Assembly: GCA_963710645.1 (NCBI GenBank)
Contig: CAVQBD010000002.1
Location: 138,828 to 202,827, forward strand
Length of the DNA: 64,000 bases
Direction: 5' to 3'
From: an uncultured Holophagae bacterium
Lineage (GTDB): Bacteria > Acidobacteriota > Thermoanaerobaculia > Thermoanaerobaculales > Sulfomarinibacteraceae
Part shown: positions 14,277-52,282 of the stretch, in pieces
Position numbering within the stretch: the first letter of the stretch is position 1
Layout of the letters: each line of letters opens with the position of its first letter
Notes under the pieces: model-generated
Seen by the model: the letters and a program-made list of their open reading frames with translations, nothing else
What the model was told of the DNA's origin: nothing
The model's database searches: none
Translations under genes and position numbers: made by a program

Positions 14277-16416
14277 TGACGGCGCCGGGTCCGGTCAGAT
14301 GATATCCGGGAGTTGGCAGGTGCAAAGCAAAGGCTCGACCCCCCGACCCGAACATCTGGCGGAGCTGGCGGATGATTTTCTGACCAGGTGTCGAGGCGAC
14401 GGACCAGCCAACTGCGCCGCCCGCTGTCCGCTGCACGTTGATGCTCACGGCTATATGCAGTTGACCCGCCTCGGCAGGTTTCGCGAGGCATTGCAGTTGA
14501 TTCGCGAGGAACTCCCGTTTCCGGGCATCCTGGGCCACGTGTGCGTCCATCCGTGTGAGCTGCACTGCAAGAGGATCGATACCGATTCGGCCGTTCGGAT
14601 CCGTGATGTGAAGCGTTTTCTCGCCCAATGGGAGCCCGGTGACCCGCAGCACGTGACCGATTGCCTCCCGTCGAAGGAACAGACCGTGGCCGTGGTGGGC
14701 TCCGGTCCGGCGGGGCTGATTGCCGGCTATGACCTCCGTCGCCAAGGCTACCGGGTGACGATTTTTGAAAAAGAGGACCGGATCGGCGGCTGTCTGACCC
14801 ACAGGATCCCGGAATGGCGGCTGCCGGCAGATGTGCGGCAGCGGGACCTGTCCATCGTCGATGCGGTGGGACTTGCCGTCGAGACGGGTGTGGAGGTCGG
14901 GAAGGACCTCAGCCTCGGCGAGCTCTGCGCCTCCCACCACGCCGTGCTTCTGGTGGTGGGCTTCGGTGGCGGGCAAATCCTGCTCGATCGGGAATCCTCC
15001 AGCCTTCGCCGGTCGGCACGTCAGACGATAATGGTGAATCCAAACACCGGCATGTCGGACATCGAGGGTGTGTTCGCCGGTGCTGATGCCGTGACCGGGC
15101 CTGGGACGGTGATCCACGCTCTGGCGTGGGGTCGGAGGTTGGCCAGGTCGGCGGAGAAGTTCCTCGACGGCCGAGACCCGGCCGAGGACCAATGGTCCCA
15201 CCGCCCGCCACCCCTGTTGTGGCGCCTCGAGGTGGACGAGGCCGAGCGACGTCGGCGAGAGCGACCGCCGGTGATGCTGCGACCGCCTCCAGAGGAGATG
15301 ACCGAGGCCGAAGCGGTGGCAGAGGGCGAGAGATGTCTCGACTGTGTCTGTGGACTCTGCACGGTTGAGTGCGAATTCCTGGCCAAGTATTGCGATGTGC
15401 CGAGGCAGCTGGCTGCAAAGATCCGGGACGGTCCGGAGCATCACCTCGACATGGTCTATTCCTGTAACCTGTGTGGTCTCTGCCGCCAGGTCTGTCCGGT
15501 GGACCTGGACACAGGTGAGTTGATGCTCGAGGCGAGACGGCGTGCTGTGCGCAGTGGGGTCGCTCCGCTTGATCGTCACCGCAAGGAATTGCGGTTCTTT
15601 CGACTGGGCGTCTCCAAGACCTTCTCGCTGGCAGCTCCGGAGCCGGGCCGCCGCACGGCCAACAGTTTGTTCTTCACCGGTTGCTCGTTGCCGGCCTCCT
15701 CCCCTGAAAACACCCTCCGCCTTTACCAGGAACTGCGACGCCTTTCCCCCGGCATCGGTGTTCTGATGCACTGTTGCGGTGCGCCGGCATTCGCCATCGG
15801 GATGGAGGAGGAAGCTCGCTCCGCCCGGCAAAACGTGCTGGAGATGGCCCAGAGCCTCGGTGCCGACGAGCTGATCGTGGCGTGTCCCGGGTGCCAGAAA
15901 ACCCTTGACCAGCCCGATTTCGGCCTCAAGGTGCGGTCCGCCTGGCAGCTCCTGGCCGAGTCCTGGTCACCTGAGGTGGACTGGAAGGGGCTCGACGTTT
16001 CGGTGCACGATCCGTGCGTGGCCCGTCACGACGCCGCCACCCAAGACGCGGTGCGATTGCTCATCAACGGGACCGGTGCAAGGACCGTCGACTTGGAGGC
16101 CTCGGGGGAGGACACGAGGTGCTGCGGTCTTGGCGGGAGGATTGGCGGCGTGGATCCCCAGCTTTCCCGGGCGGTTGCACAACGGCGGGTGGCCGAGGCC
16201 TCGGATCCGATCGTCACCTACTGCACGAGGTGCCGGGCCGCACTGCAGAGCGGTGGGGGAGCTCCGGTCCACCTCCTGGAACTATTGTTCGCCAATGATC
16301 TGGAGAGGGCCCTGGCCAGAAAACCGCTGGGTGCCATTCGGCGCTATGCCAATCGTTTGTTGGCCAAGAGATCATTGCGCCGTGGCCCGCTCACCGGCCG
16401 GGTGCAGGGCGGATGA
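14263..16416 (+). CDS. GltD/DsrL-like NAD(P)H flavoprotein fused to an HdrD/GlpC-like module (2x[4Fe-4S] and 2 CCG domains)
   Basis: N-terminus matches the glutamate-synthase small-subunit pattern (CAARCPLHVD...FPGILGHVCVHPCELHCKR; dinucleotide fold VAVVGSGPAGL...IFEKEDRIGG). Two ferredoxin motifs follow (CLDCVCGLCTVEC, CNLCGLCRQVCP). Two CCG motifs complete it (HCCGAP...ACPGC and CCGLGG...YCTRC). Confidence 0.75.
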   Translation: MLRNSDGAGSGQMISGSWQVQSKGSTPRPEHLAELADDFLTRCRGDGPANCAARCPLHVDAHGYMQLTRLGRFREALQLIREELPFPGILGHVCVHPCELHCKRIDTDSAVRIRDVKRFLAQWEPGDPQHVTDCLPSKEQTVAVVGSGPAGLIAGYDLRRQGYRVTIFEKEDRIGGCLTHRIPEWRLPADVRQRDLSIVDAVGLAVETGVEVGKDLSLGELCASHHAVLLVVGFGGGQILLDRESSSLRRSARQTIMVNPNTGMSDIEGVFAGADAVTGPGTVIHALAWGRRLARSAEKFLDGRDPAEDQWSHRPPPLLWRLEVDEAERRRRERPPVMLRPPPEEMTEAEAVAEGERCLDCVCGLCTVECEFLAKYCDVPRQLAAKIRDGPEHHLDMVYSCNLCGLCRQVCPVDLDTGELMLEARRRAVRSGVAPLDRHRKELRFFRLGVSKTFSLAAPEPGRRTANSLFFTGCSLPASSPENTLRLYQELRRLSPGIGVLMHCCGAPAFAIGMEEEARSARQNVLEMAQSLGADELIVACPGCQKTLDQPDFGLKVRSAWQLLAESWSPEVDWKGLDVSVHDPCVARHDAATQDAVRLLINGTGARTVDLEASGEDTRCCGLGGRIGGVDPQLSRAVAQRRVAEASDPIVTYCTRCRAALQSGGGAPVHLLELLFANDLERALARKPLGAIRRYANRLLAKRSLRRGPLTGRVQGG

Positions 16417-18944: not shown

Positions 18945-21379
18945 TTGTCCACCCCTCCGGGGTCTCCACTGGCTATTACGGATCGCAGCCATCGGTGCCC
19001 CTGGAACCTGCGGTGGTGGATCTGGTGGACGCCTTCTTGTCCGCCAATCCGGGGGGTCGGGAGAGGTTGATTCCACTGTTGCAGTGCGTTCAGGACGAAG
19101 TCGGCCACCTACCCGTCGAGGCTCAGGAGCTGGTGGCAGATCGTCTGGCCATGTCACCGATCCAGGTCGCAGGAGTGGTCAGCTTCTACGATCTGTTCAC
19201 CCTCACGCCGCGGGCACCATTCGAAATCCGGGTCTGCGCGGGGACCGCCTGCCACGTTCAGGGTGGCGAAAGGGTGCTCGATGCGCTCACCGACGCTCTT
19301 GGAGTGACTGCCGGTGGCATCTCGGCAGACGGGTTGTTCAACCTCGAGCGAGGCCACTGCATCGGTGCCTGCGCCCTGGCCCCAGCGGTGATGGTCAACG
19401 GAGTTGTCCACGGGCGAATGACGGCCGGATCGGTGCGGCGGCTGGTGAGTCGGTTGCGTCACTCGGTCAAGGCTGCGGCGGAGCGGCCCGGTTCCATGGG
19501 TGCCGTCCGGTTGAGCCCTATGGGAGGCCTGTGGCGGAGCGCCCGTTGGCTGCCGACCGATGCATCCGGTGATGAAATCGGTGTGCGCACGATCCAGATC
19601 TGTTCAGGAAGCGGTTGCCTCGCCAACGGAGCTTTGGAGGTGGCGGAAGCCCTCAAGGCCTGTCTCCGCCGGCTGCGACGGGATGGTGGCCCGCGAGGTG
19701 CTTCGGTGGATCGGGTCAGGATAGAACTTGGAATCACTGGCTGTCGTGGCTTCTGCGCCGCCGGACCCCTGGTGAAGATCCCTGAAGTCGGTGTCCTGTA
19801 CTGCGGTGTAGGGGTCGACGACGCCGACGAGATCATCCAGAAGACGGTGTTCCAGGGTCACGTCATTCCGCGGCTGATATTTGGCGGCACAACTGGCGAC
19901 GGAAGGTACCGCAGCCAAGACGATATTCCCTTCTTCTCCGGCCAACAGCGACATGTGCTCGGGCTCTGCGGTGAAATCGACCCCGAGCGTATCGAACAAT
20001 ACGAATCTCAGGGTGGTTACCTGGCACTCGAACGGGTTGTCCGGGAATTCCGGCCGGACCAGGTGATCCAGCGGGTGATGGAATCCGGGTTGGTGGGTCG
20101 AGGCGGTTCCGGATTTCCGACCGGACGGAAGTGGCAGTTGGTCGCCGACGCCCCGGACGAGACCAAGGTCGTCATCTGCAATGGTGACGAAGGCGATCCC
20201 GGGGCGTTTATGGACCGCAGCTTGATGGAGGGCGACCCCCATTCGGTGCTGGAGGGAATGGCCATAGCGGGCTATGCGGTGGGCGCCCACATCGGCTACG
20301 TCTACCTGCGCGCCTCCTACGAGATGGCGGTGAGGAGAATGTTGCACGCCGTCGCGCAGGCACGTGAGCGCGGTTTTATCGGGGACGATGTCATGGCCAG
20401 CGGATACCACTTCGATGTCCGGATCGTGCAAGGTGGCGGCGCTTTCGTGTGCGGCGAGGAAACCGCGCTCATAGCCTCCATCGAGGGGCGACGAGCCATG
20501 CCCAGGACCCGTCCGCCACATCCTGCGACCCGCGGCCTGTGGGGACACCCCACGTTGATCAACAACGTCGAGACTCTGGCCAACATCCCGCAGATCTTGA
20601 TGCCGAGAAACCAACGGGGAGCCGGCCGCGCTACGACCAAGACGTTTGCGCTCACCGGTGCTGTTCGCAACGTCGGGCTGGTGGAGGTCACTCTGGGCAC
20701 CTCCCTGCGGGAGATCGTGTTCGGCATAGGTGGCGGACTGGCCGAGGGGCGAACATTCAAGGCGGCATGGATCGGCGGACCCGGAGGTGGGTGTCTCGGA
20801 GAGCCCCAACTGGACACCCCCATCGACTATGACTCCCTGGAGGAACAGGGAGTGGCCATGGGTTCGGGTGGGTTGGTGGTGGTGGACGACCGTACCTGCT
20901 CCGTTCGGCTGGCGCGTTTCATGCTCGCGTTTTGCGTCGAAGAATCGTGTGGCAAGTGTTCGCCCTGCCGAATCGGAACGCGGGTTCTGCTCGGTCTGCT
21001 GACTCGCGTCAGCGAGGGTGAGGGGCGGGCGGGAGACCTGGAGAGAATCGAACGCCTCGGAGAACACGTGCACAGGACATCTCTCTGTGGACTGGGACAG
21101 TCGGCCCCAATGCCGGTTCTGACTGCGCTCCGCCATTTCCGTTCGGAGTTCGAATCCCACCTCAACAGCCGCAGTTGCCCCGCCGGGGAGTGCTACCGGT
21201 TGTTGGATCTGCGTATCGATGCCGAATTGTGCGAGGGCTGTGGAGACTGCGTCGTGGTCTGTCCGGAGCAGGCGATCGTGGGAGAACCCGGTTCGAGCTA
21301 CGCCATCGACCTCGACCGATGCAACCGCTGCGGGCTATGTATCCACTGCTGCCCGTACGATGCTATCGAAACAGTGTAA
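18941..21379 (+). CDS. NuoE-like/NuoF-like fusion flavoprotein with an extra 2Fe-2S domain and a C-terminal 2x[4Fe-4S] ferredoxin domain (HydB/HydC- or Bfu-type)
   Basis: GTG 18941 overlaps the upstream TGA. NuoE motif (VCAGTACHVQG...GHCIGACALAP) and a second thioredoxin-like 2Fe-2S (CSGSGCLANG...GCRGFCAAGP). NuoF motifs GRGGSGFPTGRKW, CNGDEGDPGAFMDR and SCGKCSPCR...LCGLG. Ferredoxin motifs CEGCGDCVVVCP and CNRCGLCIHCCP. Confidence 0.8.
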   Translation: MIVHPSGVSTGYYGSQPSVPLEPAVVDLVDAFLSANPGGRERLIPLLQCVQDEVGHLPVEAQELVADRLAMSPIQVAGVVSFYDLFTLTPRAPFEIRVCAGTACHVQGGERVLDALTDALGVTAGGISADGLFNLERGHCIGACALAPAVMVNGVVHGRMTAGSVRRLVSRLRHSVKAAAERPGSMGAVRLSPMGGLWRSARWLPTDASGDEIGVRTIQICSGSGCLANGALEVAEALKACLRRLRRDGGPRGASVDRVRIELGITGCRGFCAAGPLVKIPEVGVLYCGVGVDDADEIIQKTVFQGHVIPRLIFGGTTGDGRYRSQDDIPFFSGQQRHVLGLCGEIDPERIEQYESQGGYLALERVVREFRPDQVIQRVMESGLVGRGGSGFPTGRKWQLVADAPDETKVVICNGDEGDPGAFMDRSLMEGDPHSVLEGMAIAGYAVGAHIGYVYLRASYEMAVRRMLHAVAQARERGFIGDDVMASGYHFDVRIVQGGGAFVCGEETALIASIEGRRAMPRTRPPHPATRGLWGHPTLINNVETLANIPQILMPRNQRGAGRATTKTFALTGAVRNVGLVEVTLGTSLREIVFGIGGGLAEGRTFKAAWIGGPGGGCLGEPQLDTPIDYDSLEEQGVAMGSGGLVVVDDRTCSVRLARFMLAFCVEESCGKCSPCRIGTRVLLGLLTRVSEGEGRAGDLERIERLGEHVHRTSLCGLGQSAPMPVLTALRHFRSEFESHLNSRSCPAGECYRLLDLRIDAELCEGCGDCVVVCPEQAIVGEPGSSYAIDLDRCNRCGLCIHCCPYDAIETV

Positions 21380-30059: not shown

Positions 30060-31379
30060 ATGGCTGATCTGCAGGACATCCAGGTCATGGATCCCGGCGT
30101 TGACGACAATATCGCCAAACTGACGCCGGAGCGTATCGAGACCACTATCAACAGGGTGCTGACCGACGAGTGCGGCGCGCGGCTGCGGGTCTATCTCGAC
30201 ACGTGTGTCCACTGCGGCCTGTGTGCCGAGGCGTGCCAGAGCTACGTCTCCCGCAACGGCGACCCGGACTACGCGCCGGTGGCCAAGGTCAAGGACACGT
30301 TGTGGGAAATGGTCAAGCGCAAGGGTCGCGTGGACGGCGAATTCCTCCACAACGCGGCCCGAATCGCCTTCATTGACTGCGGGGCGTGCCGCCGCTGCAG
30401 CATGTACTGCCCATTTGGGATCGACATCGCCTATCTGATCATGACCGTGCGTCGGATCCTCAACCTGCTCGGGGTGGTTCCCCAGTACCTTCAAGACACC
30501 ACCAACAGCCACGCCGCCACCATGAACCAGATGTGGGTCCAGCAGGATGACTGGATCGACACCCTGATGTGGCAGGAGGAGGACGCCCAGGAGGAGCTGG
30601 CGGGCACCAGGATCCCGCTCGACAAGGAGGGCGCCGACATCATGTACTCGGTGATCGGTCCCGAACCCAAGATCCTCGCCCAGCTGATCGCCAACATGGC
30701 GATCATCTTCAAGGTGGCCGGCGCCGACTGGACCATGCCGTCCACCGACGGCTGGGACAACTCGAACATGGCCATGTACTCGGGCGACTTCGAAACCATG
30801 GGACGGGTCGAGCGGCTGCACTGGGAACGTGCCATGCAGCTCAAGGTCAAACGGGTGGTGATGGGCGAGTGCGGCCACGCCTACCGCGGGGCGGTTTACG
30901 ACGGACCGAGGTGGCTTGGTTGGACCAAGCCACCCATTCCCATGGTGCACGCCGTCGAGTACTACTACGAGATCATCAAGAGCGGTCGGCTGAAGATCGC
31001 CCGAAAGATCGAAGAGCCGGTCACGGTGCAGGATCCCTGCAACATCGTCCGCGGCCGCGGGCTTCACGACAAACTGAGGTACGTCGTCAACGCGATCTGC
31101 GAGGACTTCCGGGACATGGATCCCCGTTACGAGCACAACTACTGCTGTCAGGCCGGAGGAGGGCTGATCAATTGCGGCCCACCGTGGAAGGTGTCTCGGA
31201 TGAAGAGCAACAAGATCAAGGCGGAACAGATCGTCGGCACCGGGGCCCACACGGTCATCACCCCGTGCCACAACTGCCACAGCGGCATCGAAGACATCAT
31301 CGGTTACTACAAGCTCGGCGCCCATGTGTCGTTCATCAGCGAGCTCCTGGTCAAGACCATCGAGCTTCCGGAAGCCTGA
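30060..31379 (+). CDS. hmcF: HmcF-like Fe-S/CCG protein (HdrD/DsrK family)
   Basis: Motifs CVHCGLCAEACQ, CGACRRCSMYCP, GECGHAYRG, QDPCNIVR, YCCQAGGG and TPCHNCHSG. Confidence 0.7.
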   Translation: MADLQDIQVMDPGVDDNIAKLTPERIETTINRVLTDECGARLRVYLDTCVHCGLCAEACQSYVSRNGDPDYAPVAKVKDTLWEMVKRKGRVDGEFLHNAARIAFIDCGACRRCSMYCPFGIDIAYLIMTVRRILNLLGVVPQYLQDTTNSHAATMNQMWVQQDDWIDTLMWQEEDAQEELAGTRIPLDKEGADIMYSVIGPEPKILAQLIANMAIIFKVAGADWTMPSTDGWDNSNMAMYSGDFETMGRVERLHWERAMQLKVKRVVMGECGHAYRGAVYDGPRWLGWTKPPIPMVHAVEYYYEIIKSGRLKIARKIEEPVTVQDPCNIVRGRGLHDKLRYVVNAICEDFRDMDPRYEHNYCCQAGGGLINCGPPWKVSRMKSNKIKAEQIVGTGAHTVITPCHNCHSGIEDIIGYYKLGAHVSFISELLVKTIELPEA

Positions 31380-31382
31380 GGG

Positions 31383-32903
31383 GTGGTGGGAATGTCCGCA
31401 CGCAATTGGTATCTGGCGGTTTGGTGTGTTGTGCTGTTGCTCGCGGCCACGGTTGGGGTCTCGGCCGGGGAGGTCGGGGCTTTGCGGGCCATCGGCCCGT
31501 CGATCATCGTCATGGACAACATTGGCGCCTTCGACGTCATGGAGCGGCCATCGGTGGAGTTCGACCATGCGGCACACGCCGATGCGATGAAGTCTGAGGG
31601 CTGCACGGCGTGCCATCGGGTCGAGAACGAACGGCTGATGCCCAAACTGTCCGGGATTCCCAACGTCGGCGACCGAGATGAGTTGCTCGACGGCTTTCAT
31701 GGGAGGTGTATCGGTTGCCACTCCGAGCGCGCCGATGCGGCCCAGTCCAGCGGTCCGGTGACCTGCGGCGAGTGCCACGTCCGTCGGCCGGACGGTGTCT
31801 CGACTCGGGCGGCCATGTCCTTCGATTACTCGCTCCACGCACGCCACGCGCAGGCCTACCCCGAGCGGTGCGAGGAATGCCATCACGTCTACGACGAGCA
31901 GCAGCAGAAGTTGGTTTACGTCAAGGGCGAAGAAGATGCGTGTCGCTCGTGTCACGGAGAGTCGGACGTGAATGATACGCCCTCGCTCGAAAATGCCTCC
32001 CACCGAGGCTGCATCTCGTGCCACCTGAATCGGCAGGCGGCCGAGCTCGAGGCCGGCCCGGTGCGGTGCGTCGGGTGCCATGATCTCGATCACCAGCTTG
32101 CGATCAAGACCCTCGACGCGGCCGAGATTCCCCGCCTGCTGCGAGGCCAGCCGGACAGCGTCTGGATCGTCGACGACGAGGCTCGGACCAGGGTCGTGGC
32201 CTTTGATCACAAGGGACACGAGTCGGTCACCACCTCGTGCTCCACCTGCCATCACCAGACGATGAAGCCCTGTGGTGAGTGCCACACGTTGGTTGGCTCA
32301 ACGGAGGGTGGTGGGGTCACCATGGCGGTGGCTTATCACCTCGATGGCTCCGAACACAGCTGTGTGGGGTGCCATACGCTCGAAACTCGCGAGCAGGAGT
32401 GCTCCGGCTGCCACGCCCAGCCCTCGGTGGCACCGGCCGAAAGTACTTGCACGGTGTGTCATGCGGGTCCGGTCGCTGGACCCGAGGTGGCCGAGATGCC
32501 GGTGCCGGTTGCTCAACAATCGGAAATGGCGGCTCTTCCCCAGATCTCGGAATCCTACCCGGAGACGGTGGAGATCGCCGTGCTGGTGGACCGATACCAG
32601 TCCTCCAAGCTGCCCCACGCCAAGATTGTGGCCCGGCTCGACGCAGCGGTACGGGCCAGCGATCTGGCCGGTCGATTCCACCAGAATGTGGAGACCTTGT
32701 GCGCGGGCTGTCACCACCACAGTCCGGCGGGGATCCGGCCGCCGCCGTGTCGCGCGTGCCACGCCGAGGCTGCCGCCACCCGGGACATGCCCGGACTCAA
32801 GGTTGCCTACCACCGGCAGTGCATGGGCTGCCATGCCGAGATGGGGATCAAGGCTCAGAGCTGTACGGATTGCCACGCAGAGAGGGAGGGCGAAGAGTCA
32901 TGA
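31383..32903 (+). CDS. hmcA: Periplasmic 16-heme cytochrome c (HmcA-like)
   Basis: Signal peptide, and 16 CXXCH motifs counted in the translation: CTACH, CIGCH, CGECH, CEECH, CRSCH, CISCH, CVGCH, CSTCH, CGECH, CVGCH, CSGCH, CTVCH, CAGCH, CRACH, CMGCH, CTDCH. Confidence 0.85.
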   Translation: MVGMSARNWYLAVWCVVLLLAATVGVSAGEVGALRAIGPSIIVMDNIGAFDVMERPSVEFDHAAHADAMKSEGCTACHRVENERLMPKLSGIPNVGDRDELLDGFHGRCIGCHSERADAAQSSGPVTCGECHVRRPDGVSTRAAMSFDYSLHARHAQAYPERCEECHHVYDEQQQKLVYVKGEEDACRSCHGESDVNDTPSLENASHRGCISCHLNRQAAELEAGPVRCVGCHDLDHQLAIKTLDAAEIPRLLRGQPDSVWIVDDEARTRVVAFDHKGHESVTTSCSTCHHQTMKPCGECHTLVGSTEGGGVTMAVAYHLDGSEHSCVGCHTLETREQECSGCHAQPSVAPAESTCTVCHAGPVAGPEVAEMPVPVAQQSEMAALPQISESYPETVEIAVLVDRYQSSKLPHAKIVARLDAAVRASDLAGRFHQNVETLCAGCHHHSPAGIRPPPCRACHAEAAATRDMPGLKVAYHRQCMGCHAEMGIKAQSCTDCHAEREGEES

Positions 32904-33937
32904 GCATCACACGCCGGTCCATGATCGGAGGCCTGGTTGGTGGGGCGGCCGCCATGGCGGCCGAGTCCGCCGATGCCGGCTCCCATAAGCATTTCGAGGG
33001 CTATCCGGGCCGCTACGGGCTCCTCCACGACACCACCCTGTGTGTGGGCTGCCGGTCCTGCGAGATGGCCTGTGGCGAGGTCAACGATCTGCCCGCCCCA
33101 GAGGCTCCCATTGGTGACCAGCGTGTCTTTGAGGACACGCGGCGGACCACTGCCACCCATCTGACGGTCGTCAACCGCTATGTTGAACGAAGCGGCAATC
33201 AGCCGGAGGTGTTCCGCAAGCTCCAGTGCATGCACTGCAACGAGCCGTGCTGCGCCACCGTGTGCCCGGTTGGAGCATTCACAAAAACCCCCGAGGGACC
33301 GGTGCTCTATGACGCCGAGGTCTGCATGGGTTGCCGCTACTGCATCATGGCCTGCCCCTACAACGCCTTGGCCTATGAGTATGACAATCCGCTGACGCCA
33401 AGGGTCATGCGCTGCACCATGTGCTATCAGCGGATCGTGGAGGGCCAGGTTCCGGGTTGTGCCGAAGCCTGTCCAACAGGCGCCATCACCTTCGGCCGGC
33501 GCGACGAACTCATTAAAGTGGCCAGAGAGAGGATCCGCAAGGAACCCGGCCGCTACATCGACCACATCTTCGGTGAGAACGAGTTCGGCGGCACGAGCTG
33601 GCTGCTGCTGGCCGGCGTGCCCTTCAGTCAGCTCGATCTGCACGAGGGTCTGACCTATGAGCCCCTGCCGGCCATCGCGACCAGCTATCTCAGCGTCGTG
33701 CCACTGGTGATCACGATCTACCCGGGCCTGCTCCTCGGTCTGCACGCCTTCAGCAAACGCCAGGAGGCGGTGGCCCGCAAAGAGCGGGATGAGGCGGTGG
33801 CCGAAGCCCTGAAAAAGGCCGACGACGACGCGAAACAGAAGCTCACCAAGGCCGCCGAGAAGGCGAAGAAGGACCAGCAACGGGCGGTTGACATGGCGGT
33901 TAAAAAGGCGCTCGAGGAGCACGGGGGTGGAGCATGA
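32900..33937 (+). CDS. hmcB: HmcB-like Tat-exported 4x[4Fe-4S] protein (DsrO/PsrB/NrfC family) with a C-terminal TM anchor
   Basis: ATG 32900, with an ATGA overlap to hmcA. Twin-arginine leader MSITRRSMIGGLVGG. Four Cys clusters (CVGCRSCEMAC, CMHCNEPCCATVCP, CMGCRYCIMACP, CTMCYQR...CAEACP) and a late hydrophobic helix. Confidence 0.8.
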   Translation: MSITRRSMIGGLVGGAAAMAAESADAGSHKHFEGYPGRYGLLHDTTLCVGCRSCEMACGEVNDLPAPEAPIGDQRVFEDTRRTTATHLTVVNRYVERSGNQPEVFRKLQCMHCNEPCCATVCPVGAFTKTPEGPVLYDAEVCMGCRYCIMACPYNALAYEYDNPLTPRVMRCTMCYQRIVEGQVPGCAEACPTGAITFGRRDELIKVARERIRKEPGRYIDHIFGENEFGGTSWLLLAGVPFSQLDLHEGLTYEPLPAIATSYLSVVPLVITIYPGLLLGLHAFSKRQEAVARKERDEAVAEALKKADDDAKQKLTKAAEKAKKDQQRAVDMAVKKALEEHGGGA

Positions 33938-35121
33938 GTCAGGCCGGTGTCGAGAGTCTGCAGCCGGCGCCGTCAAAGCCCGGTCTGCTGACTCCGTTCA
34001 ACGTGGTGTCGGGGATCATATTGATCGGTGGTGCGGCGATCCTGGCCCTCCGATTCATCAAGGGGTTGGAGGCGACGACCAACCTCACCGACACCTATCC
34101 GTGGGGGCTGTGGATCGGCTTCGATGTCATGAGTGGGGTCGCGCTGGCAGCCGGTGGCTTCGTCACTTCGACTGCCGTTTACCTCTTCGGCATGAAGGAG
34201 TACAAGCCCATCGTCCGGCCGGCGATCCTGACGGGATTCCTCGGTTATTTCCTGGTGGTCCTCGGGCTGCTTGCGGATCTCGGACGCCCCTGGCGCCTTC
34301 CCTATCCCTTTATCAAACAGGCGGGCCCGACCTCACCGTTATTCGAGGTGGCGCTCTGCGTGGCGTTGTACCTGACGGTGTTGTTCATCGAGACGACGCC
34401 GGCCGCGCTGGAGTGGCTCGGTCTGAAACGGTGGCGCAGGGTGGTGGGCAGCCTGACCATCGCGCTCACCGTTTTCGGCTTGATATTGTCCACCATGCAT
34501 CAGTCCACCCTCGGGGCCATGTACATGGCGGCGCCCACCAAGGTGCACCCGCTTTGGTACTCGGCCCACATGCCGGTGCACTTCTTCGTGTCGGCGGTGG
34601 CGGCGGGCATCGGCATGGTTATCGTGGAAGGGGCCATCTCCCACCGGGCCTTCCACCATCAAGTACAGATCACCCAGGATCAATTCAGGGATATCAACAT
34701 CGGACTGGCCAAGGCCGGTGCGGTGGCTCTGGCTGTCTATTTCGCCGTCAAGGTGGTCGGTCTCGCCATCGAGGACGAATGGGCGTTGTTGGGCACGGGC
34801 TGGGGTGCGTGGTTTCTTCTGGAGATCCTCGGTTTTGTTCTGCTGCCCTGCATCCTCTTTGCGGTTGCATACCGGGAAAGGAATGTGGTGCTGGCCCGAG
34901 TCGCGGGCGTCCTCACGGTTGTGGGCGTCGTCCTGAACAGATTCAATATCACGTTTGTCGTATTCAACTGGAATTACACGACCGAGCCCAGGTACTACCC
35001 GAACTGGATGGAGATCTGGGTGACCGTCGCGTTCATCACATTCGCGGTGGTGGTGTTCAAGTTGATCGCGAGCTACATGCCGATCATGTACGAACACCCC
35101 GACTGGAAAGGCGAGCACTGA
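33934..35121 (+). CDS. hmcC: HmcC-like NrfD/PsrC/DsrP-family integral membrane quinone-interacting subunit
   Basis: ATGA overlap with hmcB. 395 aa and polytopic, with the NrfD-type N-terminus ...TYPWGLWIGFDVMSGVALAAGGF. Confidence 0.8.
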   Translation: MSQAGVESLQPAPSKPGLLTPFNVVSGIILIGGAAILALRFIKGLEATTNLTDTYPWGLWIGFDVMSGVALAAGGFVTSTAVYLFGMKEYKPIVRPAILTGFLGYFLVVLGLLADLGRPWRLPYPFIKQAGPTSPLFEVALCVALYLTVLFIETTPAALEWLGLKRWRRVVGSLTIALTVFGLILSTMHQSTLGAMYMAAPTKVHPLWYSAHMPVHFFVSAVAAGIGMVIVEGAISHRAFHHQVQITQDQFRDINIGLAKAGAVALAVYFAVKVVGLAIEDEWALLGTGWGAWFLLEILGFVLLPCILFAVAYRERNVVLARVAGVLTVVGVVLNRFNITFVVFNWNYTTEPRYYPNWMEIWVTVAFITFAVVVFKLIASYMPIMYEHPDWKGEH

Positions 35122-41808: not shown

Positions 41809-44800
41809 CTACCTATTCACCACCTCGATCAACGGACACGGACGTTCGTCGGTGCCCTCGTGGGCTTGTCCGTGAATTGCCTCGATCGCACGGGCGCGGG
41901 TCGGAAAGACCGACTCCCGGCCAATGGTCGCGAGACAGCCGGTCCGTTCGAGAATGTCGAAAATGTCATCCTTGAGACCGCTGATTGAAACCTGGTAACC
42001 GGCGCTTCGAAGATCCAGTACCAGGTCACCAAGGTCCTCCGCCGCGATCTCATCCACGGTCGAAAGACCGTGACACGCGAGCAGGATGTGGCGCGTCTCG
42101 GGGCGCGCGGCGACACGCGCCTTGATCTCGTGCGCGACGAAATCCACGGTCGCAAAATTGAGAGGCCCGTCGATCCGCATGGCTGCGATAAATCGGCAGA
42201 CGGCGAGACCATAGTGGTCGGCGTTGCGGAGCGATCCGTCCGCATGCATCGAAATCTCCACGACCCGAGGCAGGAGCGGCTGCATCGGGCAGTGCTCCTC
42301 AGAGTGTCCACGATGGGCCTCGGCGTACATGCTGGCCACTGCAGAGTCCGCGGTCGGGAAGATATTGTCCAACCCGATTTCGTCGGCAACACCCGACCGT
42401 CCGAGCTCCTCGAAAACGTGATCTCTGAAGCTGCAGAACGACACCGAAAAAGCCGCCTTTCTCAGGCGTTCCACCAACTCGCGAAGCCTTTGTGCGTCTT
42501 CCGAGCCGTGTCGTTCAAGGGTGTGAGCGACAAACAAAATGTGAGTCACCTCAAGCCGATTCTTGACCCACTTGGTGAGCTCCAACTCCAGAGCCGCCGG
42601 GTTGGCGAGAATCAACGGTCCATCGAAGCGAAGGGCCGCGATGTGAGAACACAGTCCAAGGCCGTGCCGTCGAGCTTCGCGCAAACTCCCGTCAGGATGC
42701 AAGGAAAGTTCGGTGACACGGGGCGCCATGGGCTGGAACGGGCAGTTCGGCTCGCTCGATTCGGCGTGCGCCTGCGAGCACAGGGCGGCGATCGCTGCGA
42801 ATTGGGTGGGGAAGCGGTGATTTGAGCCGATGACCTGGTCAGTGTCAATCCGGTCGAGGACCTCCAGGACTTCATCCCGGAAGCCCGAGAACGACACGCC
42901 CAAACCCTGCTCGCGGAGACGGTTGACGACCTGAACGAGCTTCTGCGCCCCGGACGGATCGACCTCCGCAATACCGTGGGCGACGAATATGACCTGTCGC
43001 AGCTCCGATCTCCCCTCCAATTTCAGGAGGATCTCCTGCTCGAGGAAATCCGTGTTGGCATAGGTGAGCGGATCGTCGAAGCGGAGGACTGCCATGTGCC
43101 GGCACAACTGGAGGTCATGGCGTACAGCATCGCGAAGCGAACCGTCGGGATGGACCGAGAGTTCCGCGAGTCGGGGCATCACCGATCGATAGGGGCAACC
43201 CGGCTCGGGATCAGTGTGGGCCGAGGCGTAGATCGCAGCGATGGCCTGGGCCTGAGTGGGGAACTGGTGGTCCCCGCCGAGGACATCGTAGAGGTGGGAC
43301 CGTTTGAGCACGTCGACGACCTGGTCCTTGAGGCCGCAGAAAGAGACGTCGTACTTCGCCTCCCGCAAGTGCTCCACCAGGTGGCGCAACATTTCCTCAC
43401 CCGAGGCGTCGACCTCGTTGATGCCCTCGGCCACGACCAGGACGTGCTTGAGATCCGGCATCTTGGAGACCCGATCGAGCACCTCGTCCTCGAGGTAGGA
43501 GGCGTTGGCGAAGTTCAGCGGGCCGTCGAACCGTATTGCGGCCAGGTACCGGCATTGCTCGAGGCCATGCCTCCTGGCGTCCTTCAAACCGCCCTCCGAA
43601 TGGGGGGCCAATACGGCCACGCTGGGACGCATCGTACGGAAGAGGTACCCGCCAAGCGACAGGGTCACCCCGATCAGGATCCCCCACTCGAGGTGCGGCG
43701 CAAGAATGAGAGTGCACACGAAGGTCACGACCGACACGAAACCGTCGAATGGTTGGGTCCGCCAAGCATGGACAAAACCACTCACGTTGAGCAGGCCGAA
43801 TACGGCCATCATGATGATCGACGCCAGCACCGCCTGTGGCAGGTTGTAGAGCATGGGTGAGAAAAAGAGCAGGACGATCGCGACGATCAACCCGGAGAAG
43901 ACGTTGGACATGCCGGTGCGCGCTCCCGCCTGCAGGTTGACGGCCGAGCGCGAGAACGATCCCGAGACGGCATAGCTCTGACCCATGCAGCCAACGATGT
44001 TTGCCAACCCCTGACCGATCAGCTCCTGGTTCGGGTCGAGCTTCTGCTTTGTCTTGGCGGCCATCGCTTTGGCGATCGAGATCGCTTCCATGAATCCGAG
44101 GATGGAGATGATGATCGCTGCGGCGATGAGCTTGGGTATGACCTGGAAGTCGATGACGGGCGGACTGATTGGCGGGAGGCCGGCGGGGATTGTCCCGACC
44201 ACAGCCCCTCCTCCTGTCATCATCAAATTCTCTTGATCGATGGCGACGTTGCCCACCTTGATCCGCCATGTGCCAGGTTCCACCTCGAGATCCTGGGCCG
44301 ACTCACCCCGCACGATGAATTGGGGCTCACCCTTTGCATCGACGGCGCGCTGGAAGCGGTAGCCTCTCAGCTCGGTTCGAACATCCGACACGTGGTGTTT
44401 GAGTTCCTCGATCCGAATGTCGATCAAGCCTGCCATTTGGTGAAGGGCCAGCGTCCTGCGCTCGAAATCGCCCGCCACAGCCGGACCACCGCCTGACCCA
44501 AACCCCGTCGCCGAGCGCAGCGCGTGGCAACCCATGCACTGAGTGACGAGATCGCTGTTCTGGTCGTCGAGGAGGACGTTCCCGGAGGCCCTCGCTTCCT
44601 CCAAGAGTCGCTCCTCGAGCACGGCGTCGTTGAACTCAGTGATCTGCTCTTTCACTTTTTCGGATTCGATCTGGTTGCCCTGGACGTTCTCGTTCCTTTC
44701 AAATCCGAGCGTTGCGGCAAGCGCGGTGGTTACGACAACTGCCACCAGCACATTCGGGATCCGGGGGTTGAGTCGCCTCAACGTGATCATGATTGCGAAC

Positions 44801-45414
44801 GACAAGATTGCCATCGCGAGCGTTGGAAGGTGGGTGTAGTGGAGGGCGGCCTCGAAGACCCGGTAGATGGTCCCGTAGTGATGTTCCGCCTTGTCTACAT
44901 AGACGCCGAAGATTTTCGACAATTGGGACGTTGCGATGATCAGGGCGGCGGCATTGGTGAAGCCGTTGACCACCGGATGGGAGAGGAAATTGACAATCAG
45001 GCCGAGGCGAAGGATGCCAAGGGCGAGCTGGAAAACGCCCACCATCAACGCCAGCAAAATGGCGTAGGCGATGTACTGCTGGCCGCCTGCAGTGGCGAGT
45101 GGCTCGAGTGCGGCGGCGGTCATCAGCGACACCACCGCAACAGGTCCCGTCGCCAACTGCCGGCTCGAGCCGAAGAGGTTGGCTACGATGGGCGGCAGAA
45201 AGGCCGCATAGAGCCCGTAGTAGGCCGGCAGCCCGGCCAGCTGCGCATACGCCATCGACTGGGGAACGAGAACGAGGGCTACCGTGAGCCCTGCGATGAA
45301 GTCACTTCTGAGAGTCGAGGCGTCATAGCCCTGGAACCATGTGAGAAATGGGAAAAGGCGTCGCAGGATGGTCATATCCCAGATACTCCAAGCTTTCGGA
45401 GTATACGACAGCAC
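41809..45414 (-). CDS. SulP/SLC26-family anion transporter with an inserted soluble loop and four tandem C-terminal STAS domains
   Basis: SulP signature region (LRSDFIAGLTVALVLVPQSMAYAQLAGLP...). There is a roughly 165-aa non-membrane insertion (residues about 239-404) before the VVGTIPAGLPP motif. Four roughly 150-aa STAS-like repeats occupy residues about 600-1201. Confidence 0.85.
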   Translation of the reverse strand: MLSYTPKAWSIWDMTILRRLFPFLTWFQGYDASTLRSDFIAGLTVALVLVPQSMAYAQLAGLPAYYGLYAAFLPPIVANLFGSSRQLATGPVAVVSLMTAAALEPLATAGGQQYIAYAILLALMVGVFQLALGILRLGLIVNFLSHPVVNGFTNAAALIIATSQLSKIFGVYVDKAEHHYGTIYRVFEAALHYTHLPTLAMAILSFAIMITLRRLNPRIPNVLVAVVVTTALAATLGFERNENVQGNQIESEKVKEQITEFNDAVLEERLLEEARASGNVLLDDQNSDLVTQCMGCHALRSATGFGSGGGPAVAGDFERRTLALHQMAGLIDIRIEELKHHVSDVRTELRGYRFQRAVDAKGEPQFIVRGESAQDLEVEPGTWRIKVGNVAIDQENLMMTGGGAVVGTIPAGLPPISPPVIDFQVIPKLIAAAIIISILGFMEAISIAKAMAAKTKQKLDPNQELIGQGLANIVGCMGQSYAVSGSFSRSAVNLQAGARTGMSNVFSGLIVAIVLLFFSPMLYNLPQAVLASIIMMAVFGLLNVSGFVHAWRTQPFDGFVSVVTFVCTLILAPHLEWGILIGVTLSLGGYLFRTMRPSVAVLAPHSEGGLKDARRHGLEQCRYLAAIRFDGPLNFANASYLEDEVLDRVSKMPDLKHVLVVAEGINEVDASGEEMLRHLVEHLREAKYDVSFCGLKDQVVDVLKRSHLYDVLGGDHQFPTQAQAIAAIYASAHTDPEPGCPYRSVMPRLAELSVHPDGSLRDAVRHDLQLCRHMAVLRFDDPLTYANTDFLEQEILLKLEGRSELRQVIFVAHGIAEVDPSGAQKLVQVVNRLREQGLGVSFSGFRDEVLEVLDRIDTDQVIGSNHRFPTQFAAIAALCSQAHAESSEPNCPFQPMAPRVTELSLHPDGSLREARRHGLGLCSHIAALRFDGPLILANPAALELELTKWVKNRLEVTHILFVAHTLERHGSEDAQRLRELVERLRKAAFSVSFCSFRDHVFEELGRSGVADEIGLDNIFPTADSAVASMYAEAHRGHSEEHCPMQPLLPRVVEISMHADGSLRNADHYGLAVCRFIAAMRIDGPLNFATVDFVAHEIKARVAARPETRHILLACHGLSTVDEIAAEDLGDLVLDLRSAGYQVSISGLKDDIFDILERTGCLATIGRESVFPTRARAIEAIHGQAHEGTDERPCPLIEVVNR

Positions 45415-45541
45415 TTCCTTTATGCGATGTCGGATGGAGAATCAGACAAGATCATGCGACAGTTTGACAGCCGAGATGGCGACTGACAGAATTCTGGTGC
45501 CTGCGATGTGATGTCGGGGCTTGAGCCGAGGGGGTCGAAAC

Positions 45542-46767
45542 GTGGCGATCATTACGATCGACAGTGCGACGTTCTGCCACGGGCCGGAGGTGGCATCTTC
45601 AGTGGCCGACCGTCTGAAACTGGACCGCCTCGAGGACGACGCGGTCTTTGCGGCCGCCGCCGCCGTCGCCGGTATGGATGCAGCCAAGCTGGTCCGTATC
45701 GTCTACGGTCCGGCGCCCATTTTCCCGGTCGGGGTGCGTGACACGGCGAAGGCAGTCGCCGCCCTCCGCGTCGCCTTGATCGAGGTCATCAGCGCGGATC
45801 AGCTGGTGTACCACGGTCTCCTCGGTCGGCTGCTTCCCCAAAAGCTGTCTCATGTGCTGCGAGTGTGCTTGGCAGGCGACACCGATTTTCGAATCGGGGA
45901 GGCGGACAGGCAGGGAGTTCCGCCCGGGAGGCGAAACGCCGCATCAAGGCCGACGACGACGCGCGGGCGGACTGGATCGACCTCGTGGTTGGTATGGGCC
46001 CATGGGACACGAGCATGTACGACATTTTCGTGGCCATGGACAAGACGTCTCTCGAAGGTGCGGTCGAGTTGGTCTGTGATCACGCGACTCGGCCGCTTCT
46101 GGATCTGACTCGAGCGGGCGAACGCGCCCTGGCCGAAGCTCGCCTTTCAGCGGAGGTCAATCTCGAACTCGCCCGCGAGGGCCACGACGTCGACGTGGTG
46201 TGCGACGATTCTCGGGCCACCATTTTGATCAAGAAGGAAAGCGTATTCAGGGACCGGCAGCGGAAGGAGTTCGAGAAAATTGCCCTCGGTGTCGAGGGGG
46301 TGTCTGCCGTCGAGGTCCGGCGTGGACCGCGCTTCAAGGAGCCGGACATATCATTCAAGATCGACCTCGACGTGCCGTCAAAGGTGCTGTTGGTCGATGA
46401 CGAGCAGGAGTTCGTCAACACCCTGTCCGAGCGGCTCGAGACCCGGAGCATGACGCCGGCAATCGCCTACGACGGCGAAGAGGCTCTGGCGATGGTCGCC
46501 GACGATCAGCCGGAGGTGATGGTGCTCGACCTCAAAATGCCGGGCATCGACGGCCTCGAGGTGCTGCGCAGAATGAAGAAGAGCCACCCCGAAACCCAGG
46601 TCATCATCCTCACAGGGCATGGTTCGGCGGCGGAGGAGGAATTGGCCGCCGAACTTGGCGCCTTTGCATACCTGCGCAAGCCGGTGGACATCGAGGAACT
46701 CACGGCGACAATGAGAAAAGCGTATCGTGAGATCGAGGCGCGACGCGAAGGACGCGACGACGACTGA
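45542..46767 (+). pseudogene. Cytidylate-kinase-like / BON-like / receiver-domain protein split by a frame change near 45900 (pseudogene, assembly indel or recoding)
   Basis: ORF 45521..46108 carries the N-terminal half of the kinase-like domain (...LSHVLRVCLAGDTDFRI). The continuation (SAREAKRRIKADDDARADWI...YDIFVAMD..., a BON-like segment, then a full receiver VLLVDDEQ...MVLDLKMPGIDG...ILTGHG...LRKPVD) is in the -1 frame (ORF 45865..46767). Colinearity with the paralog at 40135..41664 spans the junction. Confidence 0.7.
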
Positions 46768-46771
46768 GAAA

Positions 46772-48505
<1,734 letters not shown>

Positions 48506-50218: not shown

Positions 50219-52282
50219 TCAGCCTGCCCTCTCGAACCGTTCGAGGTGTTGTTCACTCCCCAACACCAGCATCACATCGCCCTCCTGAAAGACGTAGCCC
50301 GCACTGGGCATTTCGTCGATAAAAGTTTCCCCGTCGCTGCTCTTTCGCTTGATGAGCAGAAGGTTGACACCAAATTTCTGTCGAATGTCGAGCGAACCCA
50401 GACTCTGACCGAAGAAACTGGCGGGGACCGGGACCTCGGCAAGGCTCATGCCCCGAACTCCTGGGAGCGCTCGGGCTGACGGACCATTCCCCATTGTTCC
50501 GGCCATGGTCGAGGCCATATCGCGCTTGAGAATCTCGCCATTGTATGCCTCGATCACATCCTGCGGCCACAGGGTGCCCACGAGCCGTCCGCGATCCACC
50601 ACCGGCGCCATGAACCGATACCGTCCGAACCGCCTCATGACCTCGTCGAGCGGATCGTCGGGACCGAATACAGGGAAGCCGGTTTCCCTCATCATATCCT
50701 CGGCGATGACCAGACCTCGTGCCGATGCCGGATCGGTCATGAGGGGTCTGATGTCATCGATGGTAATCAGACCCAGGAGGTGGTGATTGGCGTCGGTCAC
50801 GAACACCGTATCGCCGGGGCGTTCGACAAAACGAGAAATCACGGGCATCAAATGGTCTTCTCGTCGGACCACGGTGACCTCGGTTCGCATCGCCTCGCGT
50901 GCGTTGAGCTGGCCAAGCACGTTGGCCGAGTATCCGCCCCGAATGTCGACCCCGCGTCGAAGCAGCTTGAGTGTATAGATCGACGCTGTCTGCATCCGTG
51001 TCGCGAGCAGAGTGGCGATGATGCAGCTGATCATCAGGGGAAGAATGATCTTGTAGTCGCCCGTGAGCTCGAAGATCATCACGATGGCGGTGATGGGAGC
51101 GTGGGTTCCCGCCGCGACAACGGCACCCATCCCCACCAGTGCGTAGGCGCCGGGGCTGGCCGACGCGTCGGGCCATAGGGAATGCACGATAGTCCCGACC
51201 GCCCCGCCGGCCATCGCGCCGATGAACAATGAGGGAGCGAAGATGCCGCCGGATCCGCCTGAACCGATGGTCAGGGAGACCGCCACGATCTTTACCAAGA
51301 CCAGGATCAGCAGCAGCTTCCACCCCAGTCCACCACTCAGTGCCTCGTTGATGGCTTCGTAGCCGACTCCAAGAACCTCCGGGAATTGGATCGCGATCAA
51401 TCCGATGAGCGCCCCGCCCATCGCTGGTTTGACGACAGCTGGAAGACTGAGAGCATCGAAGAGGTCTTCTGCGCCGTACAACGCACGAACAAAAACCAGG
51501 GCCACCAACCCGGCGATGATGCCCAACGCACCGTAGGCGAAGAGTTCGAGTGGGCTTGCGAGGCTGTAGGCCGGCACCTCAAATGCCGGGAAATTACCAA
51601 GGAAGTGTCGACTCACCACTGTTGCCGTGACAGATGAAATCACGATGGGAGAAAACTGGGTGACTCCAAAATCGCCGAGGATGATCTCCACTGAGAACAG
51701 GGCCCCGGCCACCGGCGCATTGAATGTGGCCGCGATCCCGGCCGCCGCGCCGCAGCCGACCAGGGTCCGCAGTCGCCGTTCTCCCACGCCCAACCACTGA
51801 CCGAGGGATGATCCGATCGCAGAGCCGATCTGGACGATCGGTCCTTCCCGACCCACTGACCCTCCAGATGCGATACACACGCCCGAGGCGAGGAGCTTGG
51901 CGACAACCACACGCGGACGGATCCGACCGCCCCGAAGGGCCACCGCCTCCATGACTTCCGGCACACCATGCCCCTTGGCTTCGGCAGCATAACGGACGAT
52001 GATCAGCCCGACGATCAGACCACCCACCGCCGGCGACAGCACTTTCCACCAACTCGGCAGACTTCTGAGGTATGCAAGAGTTACGTTGTCCGTTTGCCAG
52101 GCGACGGCCTGGAAGAGGCGTATGGACTCCCGGAACCCAACCGCACCAAGTCCACCGAGCAGCCCGATGACAACGGCCACGAGCACCATGTACGAGTGTT
52201 CGGTGTACTTCAGGAACAGGTGGGCACGCTCCGCCGCCTGGCGAACAAGATTGACAACCGGGATTCGGCTCAGCCAGCCCAT
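50219..52282 (-). CDS. ClC-family chloride channel/antiporter with a CBS pair and a C-terminal TrkA-C (RCK_C) domain
   Basis: GSVGREGPIVQIGS, GSGGSGGIFAPSLFIGA and the CBS region. The terminal segment VPASFFGQSLGSLDIRQKFGVNLLLIKR...GDVMLVLG is TrkA-C-like. Confidence 0.85.
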   Translation of the reverse strand: MGWLSRIPVVNLVRQAAERAHLFLKYTEHSYMVLVAVVIGLLGGLGAVGFRESIRLFQAVAWQTDNVTLAYLRSLPSWWKVLSPAVGGLIVGLIIVRYAAEAKGHGVPEVMEAVALRGGRIRPRVVVAKLLASGVCIASGGSVGREGPIVQIGSAIGSSLGQWLGVGERRLRTLVGCGAAAGIAATFNAPVAGALFSVEIILGDFGVTQFSPIVISSVTATVVSRHFLGNFPAFEVPAYSLASPLELFAYGALGIIAGLVALVFVRALYGAEDLFDALSLPAVVKPAMGGALIGLIAIQFPEVLGVGYEAINEALSGGLGWKLLLILVLVKIVAVSLTIGSGGSGGIFAPSLFIGAMAGGAVGTIVHSLWPDASASPGAYALVGMGAVVAAGTHAPITAIVMIFELTGDYKIILPLMISCIIATLLATRMQTASIYTLKLLRRGVDIRGGYSANVLGQLNAREAMRTEVTVVRREDHLMPVISRFVERPGDTVFVTDANHHLLGLITIDDIRPLMTDPASARGLVIAEDMMRETGFPVFGPDDPLDEVMRRFGRYRFMAPVVDRGRLVGTLWPQDVIEAYNGEILKRDMASTMAGTMGNGPSARALPGVRGMSLAEVPVPASFFGQSLGSLDIRQKFGVNLLLIKRKSSDGETFIDEMPSAGYVFQEGDVMLVLGSEQHLERFERAG

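Follow-up and report, generated by a model that had tools for sequence, protein, structure and literature searches.

A SulP transporter of an uncultured Holophagae bacterium with a candidate heme-attachment site at the tip of a predicted periplasmic hairpin

The SulP transporter and its domains

The subject of this analysis is a stretch of DNA of 64,000 nucleotides from an uncultured Holophagae bacterium (assembly GCA_963710645.1, contig CAVQBD010000002.1, positions 138,828 to 202,827), here called the window, and within it a gene on the minus strand (41809-45414) that encodes an anion transporter of the SulP/SLC26 type. Between the transmembrane (TM) segments TM7 and TM8 of this protein lies an insert with a single CXXCH motif. 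We consider it fairly probable that the insert is a periplasmic hairpin domain that bears one covalently attached heme at its tip; this heme may serve the transporter as a sensor of redox state or of a small ligand.

In the list of open reading frames (ORFs), the gene begins with a GTG at 45414 and encodes 1201 residues. The true start is probably the ATG of Met 14 at 45375, which gives a protein of 1188 residues; this start is favoured because the ortholog of a related locus (L001) begins at the equivalent of Met 14 with MTFLRRLFPFL. The Pfam profile Sulfate_transp (PF00916) matches in two pieces, residues 35-255 and about 402-600, with an E-value of 2.7e-107, and TIGR00815 (sulP) scores 544 bits at a cutoff of 380. 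The C-terminal part contains four tandem matches to the Pfam domain STAS with a summed E-value of 1.3e-39. The transporter is clearly a member of the SulP/SLC26 family (TC 2.A.53). Transport of a sulfate-type anion is the function predicted from similarity; the closest relatives of solved structure are sulfate transporters, and the equivalog scores for DauA and BicA are far below their cutoffs.

The first inverted repeat, TM1-TM7, comprises residues 32-236 (44707-45321, minus strand) and was delimited by means of AlphaFold2 (AF2) secondary structure, Foldseek and loop charges; TM7 ends with TALAATL. The second inverted repeat, TM8-TM14, comprises residues 426-595 (43630-44139, minus strand) and includes the SGSFSRSA motif of TM10. 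It is followed by four tandem cytoplasmic STAS repeats (residues 597-745, 746-896, 897-1047, and 1048-1201; 41812-43626, minus strand), which are evident from the Pfam matches and from a repeat listing. An AF2 model of the TM domain plus insert, built from an alignment of 121 sequences, reached a predicted local distance difference test (pLDDT) value of 84 and a predicted template modelling (pTM) score of 0.80. The model has the 7+7 inverted-repeat fold: Foldseek related it to prestin and AtSULTR4;1 with E-values of about 5e-23, and it covers the TM domains of BicA and SLC26Dg with TM-scores of 0.84-0.88.

Position, anatomy and membrane side of the insert

The insert occupies the TM7-TM8 linker, that is, the connection from gate to core. 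The last residue of the stretch ALAATLGFE is 239 and the first of VVGTIPAGLPP is 405, so that exactly 165 residues (240-404; 44203-44697, minus strand) lie in between, which agrees with the placement and length given in a preliminary description of the window. According to the same description, canonical SulP proteins have no such insert, and this is borne out by the solved SLC26/SulP structures, whose alignments flank the insert and skip it: residues 10-211 of BicA (6ki1) match residues 34-236 of the query, and residues 202-385 of SLC26Dg (5da0) match residues 406-588. AtSULTR4;1 has space for a loop of no more than about 10 residues where the insert sits.

According to the AF2 model, the insert consists of a short strand, a helix (residues 252-297), a loop of low confidence (298-313), a second helix (314-351), and a β-sheet (354-402). 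The two helices are predicted to form an antiparallel hairpin with arms of about 45 residues each, which stands on the small sheet as its base. Helix 1 (44524-44661, minus strand) contains N262 and R275, which are conserved throughout the subfamily described below, and ends in the sequence CMGCH (C293, C296, H297; residues 293-297). This motif, which indeed lies where it had been noted, at 44524-44538 on the minus strand, is the sole CXXCH in the 1201 residues of the protein and a candidate attachment site for a c-type heme. Helix 2 (44362-44475, minus strand) presents a face composed of L322, L324, H325, A328, G329, L330, and D332, as deduced from the model and from conservation; the codon of H325, a candidate distal axial ligand of the heme, is found at 44440-44442 (minus strand). 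The tip of the hairpin is a module of about 27 residues (290-316, VTQCMGCHALRSATGFGSGGGPAVAGD; 44467-44547, minus strand) with pLDDT values from below 50 to 67. The base (44209-44355, minus strand), with the conserved residues F366, W383-R384, and GGG401-403, is predicted with pLDDT values above 90 and leads into VVGTIPAGLP and TM8. When the insert was modelled alone, the same anatomy resulted, with pLDDT values above 90 in the base and of 55-67 at the tip. The insert had been characterised as hydrophilic and partly coiled-coil; its soluble and helical nature stands, whereas the model shows a hairpin and not a classical coiled coil.

Seven TM segments precede the insert in the AF2 model and seven follow it. 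In the 7+7 inverted-repeat fold of SLC26 proteins the N-terminus and the STAS domain are intracellular, the gate domain includes TM7, and TM8 is part of the core domain (PMC3988826). Because seven TM segments precede the insert and the termini of the fold are cytoplasmic, the TM7-TM8 linker is placed outside. The distribution of charges points in the same direction: the loops assigned to the cytoplasm contain 9 Lys and Arg among 58 residues, those assigned to the periplasm 2 among 53. The insert itself is net acidic (18 Lys/Arg, 30 Asp/Glu). A cytoplasmic location was rejected on the basis of fold topology and loop charge bias; the insert is predicted to be periplasmic, the location required of c-type cytochromes, and the earlier assignment of the loop to the outer face, where heme attachment is possible, is supported.

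With respect to known families, the insert stands apart. No Pfam family matches it even at E-values up to 10, cytochrome families included. A Foldseek comparison with the PDB returned nothing below an E-value of 0.001, the weak look-alikes being the hairpin proteins HelD and MacA with TM-scores of at most 0.34 (for MacA, 0.34 at a non-significant E-value of 0.86). Neither Pfam nor Foldseek recognised a cytochrome c domain or fold, and the combination of a helical hairpin with a small sheet, which gives no match to PF11845, is not that of the sCache_heme family. The insert belongs to no existing cytochrome c family and to no defined heme-sensor family.

A widespread subfamily with a long and a short form

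A scan of GTDB with one genome per species yielded at least 600 pattern matches and at least 559 genomes with a relative of the transporter. Locus counts given below derive from the best 80 loci, and conservation was determined for 133 distinct inserts of a long form, which possesses the tip module, and 53 distinct inserts of a short form, from which it is cleanly deleted. When the TM domain plus insert served as query, the 120 best matches were 57-79% identical over 98-100% of its length, and all of them had the insert at the same site. Among these best matches, the CXXCH motif is present in 106 and missing from 15, owing to a clean gap of about 26-27 residues that corresponds to residues 290-316. 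Judged by these sequence comparisons, the insert defines a large and widespread SulP subfamily. Contrary to what the preliminary description had implied, it is not peculiar to this gene but occurs in hundreds of relatives, and what appears to be its heme-less short version had already been noted in sulfate reducers (PMC5840216). A local artefact or assembly error was likewise rejected, the insert being in frame and conserved in more than 190 homologs.

Searches with the insert alone were far less productive. A word-indexed search gave a single match, a fragment of 141 residues that stems from an ortholog broken by frameshifts, has the motif CVRCH, and is encoded on a contig of 180 kb; a profile search with the insert alignment gave three, apparently an effect of the word prefilter. 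An exhaustive phmmer comparison with 1.84 billion representatives gave 20 matches, all of them SulP proteins or fragments thereof; no other type of protein with the module is among them. The low number of phmmer matches is explained by the divergence of the insert, which is much faster than that of the TM domain.

The long form is found in Acidobacteriota (Holophagae, Thermoanaerobaculia, Sulfomarinibacteraceae), Myxococcota/Polyangia, Methylomirabilota, Planctomycetota (Planctomycetales), and some unclassified metagenome-assembled genomes (MAGs). Carriers of the short form belong mainly to the Desulfobacterota (Desulfovibrio, Maridesulfovibrio, Desulfobacterium, Desulfoprunum benzoelyticum DSM 28570, Desulforhabdus sp. 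TSK, Syntrophobacteraceae); Zixibacteria and Ignavibacteria have it as well. The CXXCH motif is kept in all long-form loci, including two with genes broken by frameshifts, and lacking in all short-form loci (44/44). Two proteins that seemed to be long and devoid of CXXCH, P0137 (743 residues) and P0140 (758 residues), were rejected as such: they have short-form inserts and longer C-termini.

Some further observations concern individual members. The orthologous SulP genes of two Holophagae MAGs contain two frameshifts each, one of which is in or beside the insert (about 9900-10430 in L001/L028, contig_51778; about 8146-8159 and about 9100 in L003), and the motif is retained as CVRCH. These frameshifts look like indel errors of the assembly rather than decay. 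A short-form member from Pseudodesulfovibrio profundus (P0090, 708 residues) is labelled "DNA repair protein" in NCBI and UniRef; in all likelihood this is a misannotation, for which the resemblance of the hairpin to a coiled coil may be responsible. The STAS repeats, each of about 150 residues, have a conserved Cys near their start (LxxCR) and end with the pattern AH-x(4-7)-E-x2-C-P, whose H, E, C, and P are each at least 90% conserved across the family alignment. Arrays of 2-5 repeats of this type are confined to the long form, where they occur in 44 of 137 cases, as compared to 0 of 58 short forms. The combination of Cys-Pro and His suggests a cytoplasmic metal site or heme-regulatory site.

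Conservation of the tip and its explanation

The residues C293, C296, and H297 are each present in 133/133 long-form inserts, and R300 is present in 107/133; in the short form, this segment is missing. Helix 2 of the long form is conserved at L324 (122/133), H325 (130/133), A328 (121/133), G329 (128/133), L330 (124/133), and D332 (111/133). In the short form, the equivalents of L324, H325 (E, Q, K), A328, G329 (N, S, D), and D332 are unconserved, and L330 is mostly replaced by valine. The remaining tip columns of the long form are less than 35% conserved. At the base of the hairpin, N262, R275, R346, F366, W383-R384, and GGG401-403 are kept in both forms, W383 being invariant. The sequence thus contains a module of two parts, CxxCHxxR and the helix face LxLHxxAGLxD, which are either both there or both missing. 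H297 and H325 are separated by 16-32 residues (mode 28), a pattern typical of two fixed ligands joined by a variable loop.

That a single CXXCH may arise by chance had been pointed out in the preliminary description. From the Cys and His frequencies of the proteins encoded in the window, about 0.0013 such motifs are expected in 165 residues and 0.0096 in 1201 residues. Because the motif is invariant in all distinct long-form inserts, it is no chance match, and this explanation was rejected. The ortholog alignment proposed at that time as a check gave a uniform result: wherever a relative possesses the tip segment, both cysteines and the histidine are retained without exception.

One may ask whether the motif matters less than the structure that carries it. 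The hairpin could be mainly an architectural or protein-protein element that mediates dimerisation, docks the Cache domain of a kinase encoded nearby, or reaches toward the outer membrane, with the CXXCH as a minor, lineage-specific decoration. Hairpin and β base are kept in both forms, and no other part is as well conserved or as well predicted as the base. The weak matches of Foldseek are to hairpin proteins, MacA among them, and a Cache kinase neighbours both forms. These points account for the hairpin but not for the motif, as a minor decoration would not stay invariant across phyla amid drifting surroundings; moreover, the Foldseek matches are non-significant. We regard this explanation as improbable.

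A different use of the same residues is a structural one. The CXXCH and H325 might constitute a disulfide, formed by Dsb-type oxidation of the CXXC, or a Cys2His2-type site for Zn, Cu, or Fe, which staples or caps the tip of the hairpin. Exactly two cysteines and two histidines are conserved, the tip is poorly ordered in the apo AF2 models, as might be expected of a loop that depends on a metal or a disulfide, Pfam and Foldseek gave no match to a cytochrome-like family or fold, and H297 and H325 are not obviously near enough in the apo model for bis-His ligation. A disulfide, however, leaves unexplained why a histidine always follows directly upon the second cysteine and why helix 2 has a flat HxxAGL face. 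As to a metal site, an adjacent Cys-His pair on one ion is sterically atypical, and zinc sites based on Cys are not common in the periplasm, which is oxidising. Furthermore, in hosts that mature c-type cytochromes by System I or II, heme attachment requires no recognition element other than an exported CXXCH (PMC8112865). We regard a disulfide or metal site, the main rival of the heme, as unlikely.

The history of the tip was traced in a neighbour-joining tree of the TM domain only, in which the short forms make up two clades. Midpoint rooting gives a minimum of two changes and, in this tree without outgroup, favours two deletions of the tip.

Genomic neighbourhood

The loci nearest to the one described here are from Holophagae MAGs, with about 80% DNA identity over the aligned 8-9 kb. 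Divergent from the transporter gene, a response regulator with Cytidylate_kin2 and receiver domains is encoded at 45521-46767 (plus strand), as assigned by Pfam. In the window, its reading frame is split in two near 45880-45949, which reflects either a sequencing indel or a pseudogene; the ortholog in L001 is an intact ORF of 408 residues. Homologs of the regulator adjoin the transporter in 48-52 of the 80 loci. Next to it follows a sensor histidine kinase with a dCache_1 domain (46727-48505, plus strand; Pfam), which is a conserved neighbour in 57/80 loci. Kinase and response regulator accompany both the long and the short form, which suggests that the SulP protein, the dCache kinase, and the Cytidylate_kin2-receiver protein constitute a conserved transporter/two-component unit.

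About 9 kb from the transporter, the window contains a 16-heme class III cytochrome resembling HmcA (31383-32903, plus strand), with 16 CXXCH motifs and a match to Cytochrom_CIII, in accordance with the 16-heme protein mentioned previously. It is part of an Hmc-like redox complex that spans 30060-35121 (plus strand) and further comprises a Fer4/CCG protein (30060-31379), a 4Fe-4S protein whose ORF overlaps that of the cytochrome (32279-33937), and an NrfD-type membrane subunit (33934-35121), all on the plus strand. No ccm or ccs genes are among the ORFs of the window that were scanned. The 16-heme cytochrome encoded here implies a cytochrome c maturation system, with which the host would be able to attach heme c. 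An exported CXXCH that is conserved across phyla in hosts making c-type cytochromes is most simply understood as a covalent heme attachment site; the motif conservation, the predicted location, and the implied capacity of the host together indicate that the candidate CXXCH probably binds heme covalently.

This neighbourhood also raises the question of whether such a heme could be a working redox centre, which exchanges electrons both with the pool of periplasmic cytochromes and with a sulfur oxyanion, either the transported one or one related to it, or which docks periplasmic redox partners at the mouth of the transporter. Besides the Hmc-like complex with its 16-heme cytochrome, Fe-S subunit, and NrfD protein, a homolog of TauE-family sulfite exporters is encoded two genes downstream, and the Acidobacteriota lineages that contain the closest relatives have names referring to sulfur cycling. 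For stand-alone sCache_heme proteins, a redox rather than a sensory role has been suggested (PMC12889525). On the other hand, the proposed heme would be single and on a long stalk, and its surroundings conserve neither a second cofactor nor catalytic residues. The periplasm is not the place where sulfate itself is reduced. In addition, it is the two-component system that is conserved next to the transporter and not the TauE and Hmc genes, and the sampled lineages of sulfate reducers carry the heme-less form. Taken together, we assign little likelihood to a working redox centre.

Several other genes were observed in the window. Downstream of the transporter, the segment 36984-41664 (minus strand) encodes a Cytidylate_kin2-family protein of 509 residues, a TauE/SafE-family membrane protein, which is the sulfite exporter-like protein two genes away, and a HAMP histidine kinase; among the 80 loci, the genes for the 509-residue protein and the TauE/SafE protein are common to the closest relatives only. 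A homolog of CLC-type chloride channels/antiporters with CBS and TrkA_C domains (50219-52282, minus strand) is shared by no more than the two nearest relatives among these loci. At 14263-21379 (plus strand), there are large Fe-S/flavin oxidoreductase genes, namely an HdrA-like one with CCG, a molybdopterin oxidoreductase-NuoG-like fusion, and a NuoE/NuoF-like fusion. This cluster is consistent with an anaerobic, electron-bifurcating lifestyle.

A proposed role for the heme-tipped hairpin

We propose the following mode of operation. In the subfamily, the short periplasmic linker between TM7 and TM8 is replaced by a structured domain, whose β-sheet base, according to the models, supports a helical hairpin projecting into the periplasm. 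The cytochrome c maturation system of the host would attach one heme to C293 and C296, with H297 as proximal ligand and, likely, H325 on the small-residue HxxAGL face of helix 2 as distal ligand; the porphyrin would pack on the flat Ala/Gly face of this helix. The domain is situated in a linker whose movement is a necessary part of elevator-type transport, in which the core slides along the gate, and a rigid domain at this site is well placed to sense or to restrain such movement. It is because of this position that a sensory role is favoured: the heme may act as a periplasmic sensor of redox state or of a small ligand, e.g. nitric oxide (NO), that tunes transport. Alternatively, the recipients of the signal might be the four STAS domains in the cytoplasm, or the Cache kinase and response regulator encoded alongside. 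The presence of these two-component genes beside the transporter in 48-57 of the 80 loci speaks for a signalling context. Our confidence in this sensory step is low.

Several observations weigh against a heme-bearing sensor. The tip is the part of the insert that AF2 predicts poorly, with the values given above, and in the apo model the CXXCH simply continues helix 1. From the register of the modelled hairpin, H297 and H325 would be about 20-25 Å apart along its axis, so that ligation of one iron would require the tip to fold back. The insert matches neither a cytochrome family of Pfam nor a solved fold. The joint loss of CXXCH and HxxAGL face, as far as the sequences tell, rests on about two events, the number of independent events being small because the tree of the TM domain shows just two short-form clades. 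Finally, transporters of the short form evidently work without the motif, and heme is therefore unneeded for transport as such. Because the short-form hairpin functions without the motif, any ligand bound by it is accessory to transport.

As a tentative extension, a heme-tipped hairpin could let periplasmic redox state or a diatomic ligand such as NO gate anion uptake directly, or could make the transporter a co-sensor for the Cache kinase, in which case the cytoplasmic output would be through as many as five STAS domains; the module would then have originated or vanished by insertion or deletion of the CXXCH fragment of about 27 residues, paralleling the origin proposed for heme-Cache domains. 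Research on SLC26/SulP proteins extends from those of bacteria to human disease genes and the motor protein prestin, and the regulation known for them acts via the STAS domain in the cytoplasm. If true, a heme-bearing sensor on the outer face would be a new regulatory principle for this family, and the natural versions with and without the heme site make the idea directly testable. It might also be relevant to the control of sulfur oxyanion uptake by uncultured Acidobacteriota, Myxococcota, and Methylomirabilota in redox-stratified habitats.

Comparison with known systems

With the canonical SulP/SLC26 proteins (SLC26Dg, 5DA0; BicA, 6KI1; AtSULTR4;1, 7LHV; prestin; DauA; Rv1739c), the transporter shares the 14-TM 7+7 fold, the SGSFSRSA-type motif in TM10, the sequence VVGxIPxGLP before TM8, and the cytoplasmic C-terminal STAS domain. 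These proteins have a TM7-TM8 linker of about 10 residues or fewer and one STAS domain, whereas here the linker is a domain of 165 residues with a CXXCH and the STAS domains are four in number. In the full-text literature, we found no report that ties SulP, SLC26, or sulfate permease to a CXXCH, a heme-binding motif, or a c-type heme, and we know of no secondary transporter for which covalent heme c has been reported.

In class II cytochromes c (c', c556), the CXXCH is at the end of a helix and the heme is packed between antiparallel helices. The arrangement proposed here would resemble that of these proteins. Their own fold is a soluble four-helix bundle, in which the CXXCH lies close to the C-terminus and the sixth ligand is Met or absent, and neither Pfam nor Foldseek detects a similarity to the insert.

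Relatives with a description in the literature appear to be those of "group Ci", SulP proteins of about 710 residues in sulfate reducers. For these, Marietou et al. (2018) reported an insertion of about 90 residues, which they took for an additional TM helix; heme is not mentioned by them (PMC5840216). Group Ci appears to be the short form (Desulfovibrio, Desulfobacterium, Desulfoprunum, Desulforhabdus), a match made by length and taxa. The short forms are 57-62% identical to our transporter over TM domain and insert, and share with it the hairpin and β base at the same site and a Cache kinase and response regulator as neighbours; they are without the CXXCH tip of about 27 residues, and H325, A328, and G329 are unconserved. 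In place of an additional TM helix, the AF2 models indicate a soluble hairpin.

A precedent for such a design is offered by the sCache_heme domains (DUF3365/Tll0287). In the Geobacter chemoreceptors GSU0582 and GSU0935, a sensor domain with c-type heme lies between two TM helices (PMC12889525). Such domains, which are NO or redox sensors, contain a short CXXCH fragment inserted into an older, heme-less periplasmic sensor domain; heme binding was considered to be defined by a motif conservation of 99% and was subsequently borne out by experiment (PMC12889525). The insert of the transporter corresponds to them in its single CXXCH, in its extracytoplasmic position between TM helices, in the location of the motif within a short inserted segment, and in the near-absolute conservation of this motif. 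The differences are equally clear. The sCache_heme domains have a Cache (PAS-like) fold with the CXXCH inserted between β3 and β4 (PF11845), in contrast to a helical hairpin here, and there is no relation in sequence or fold; their carriers are chemoreceptors, kinases, and stand-alone proteins, not a transporter; and their heme is proven, whereas ours is inferred. What both would have in common, by analogy, is solely the principle of operation.

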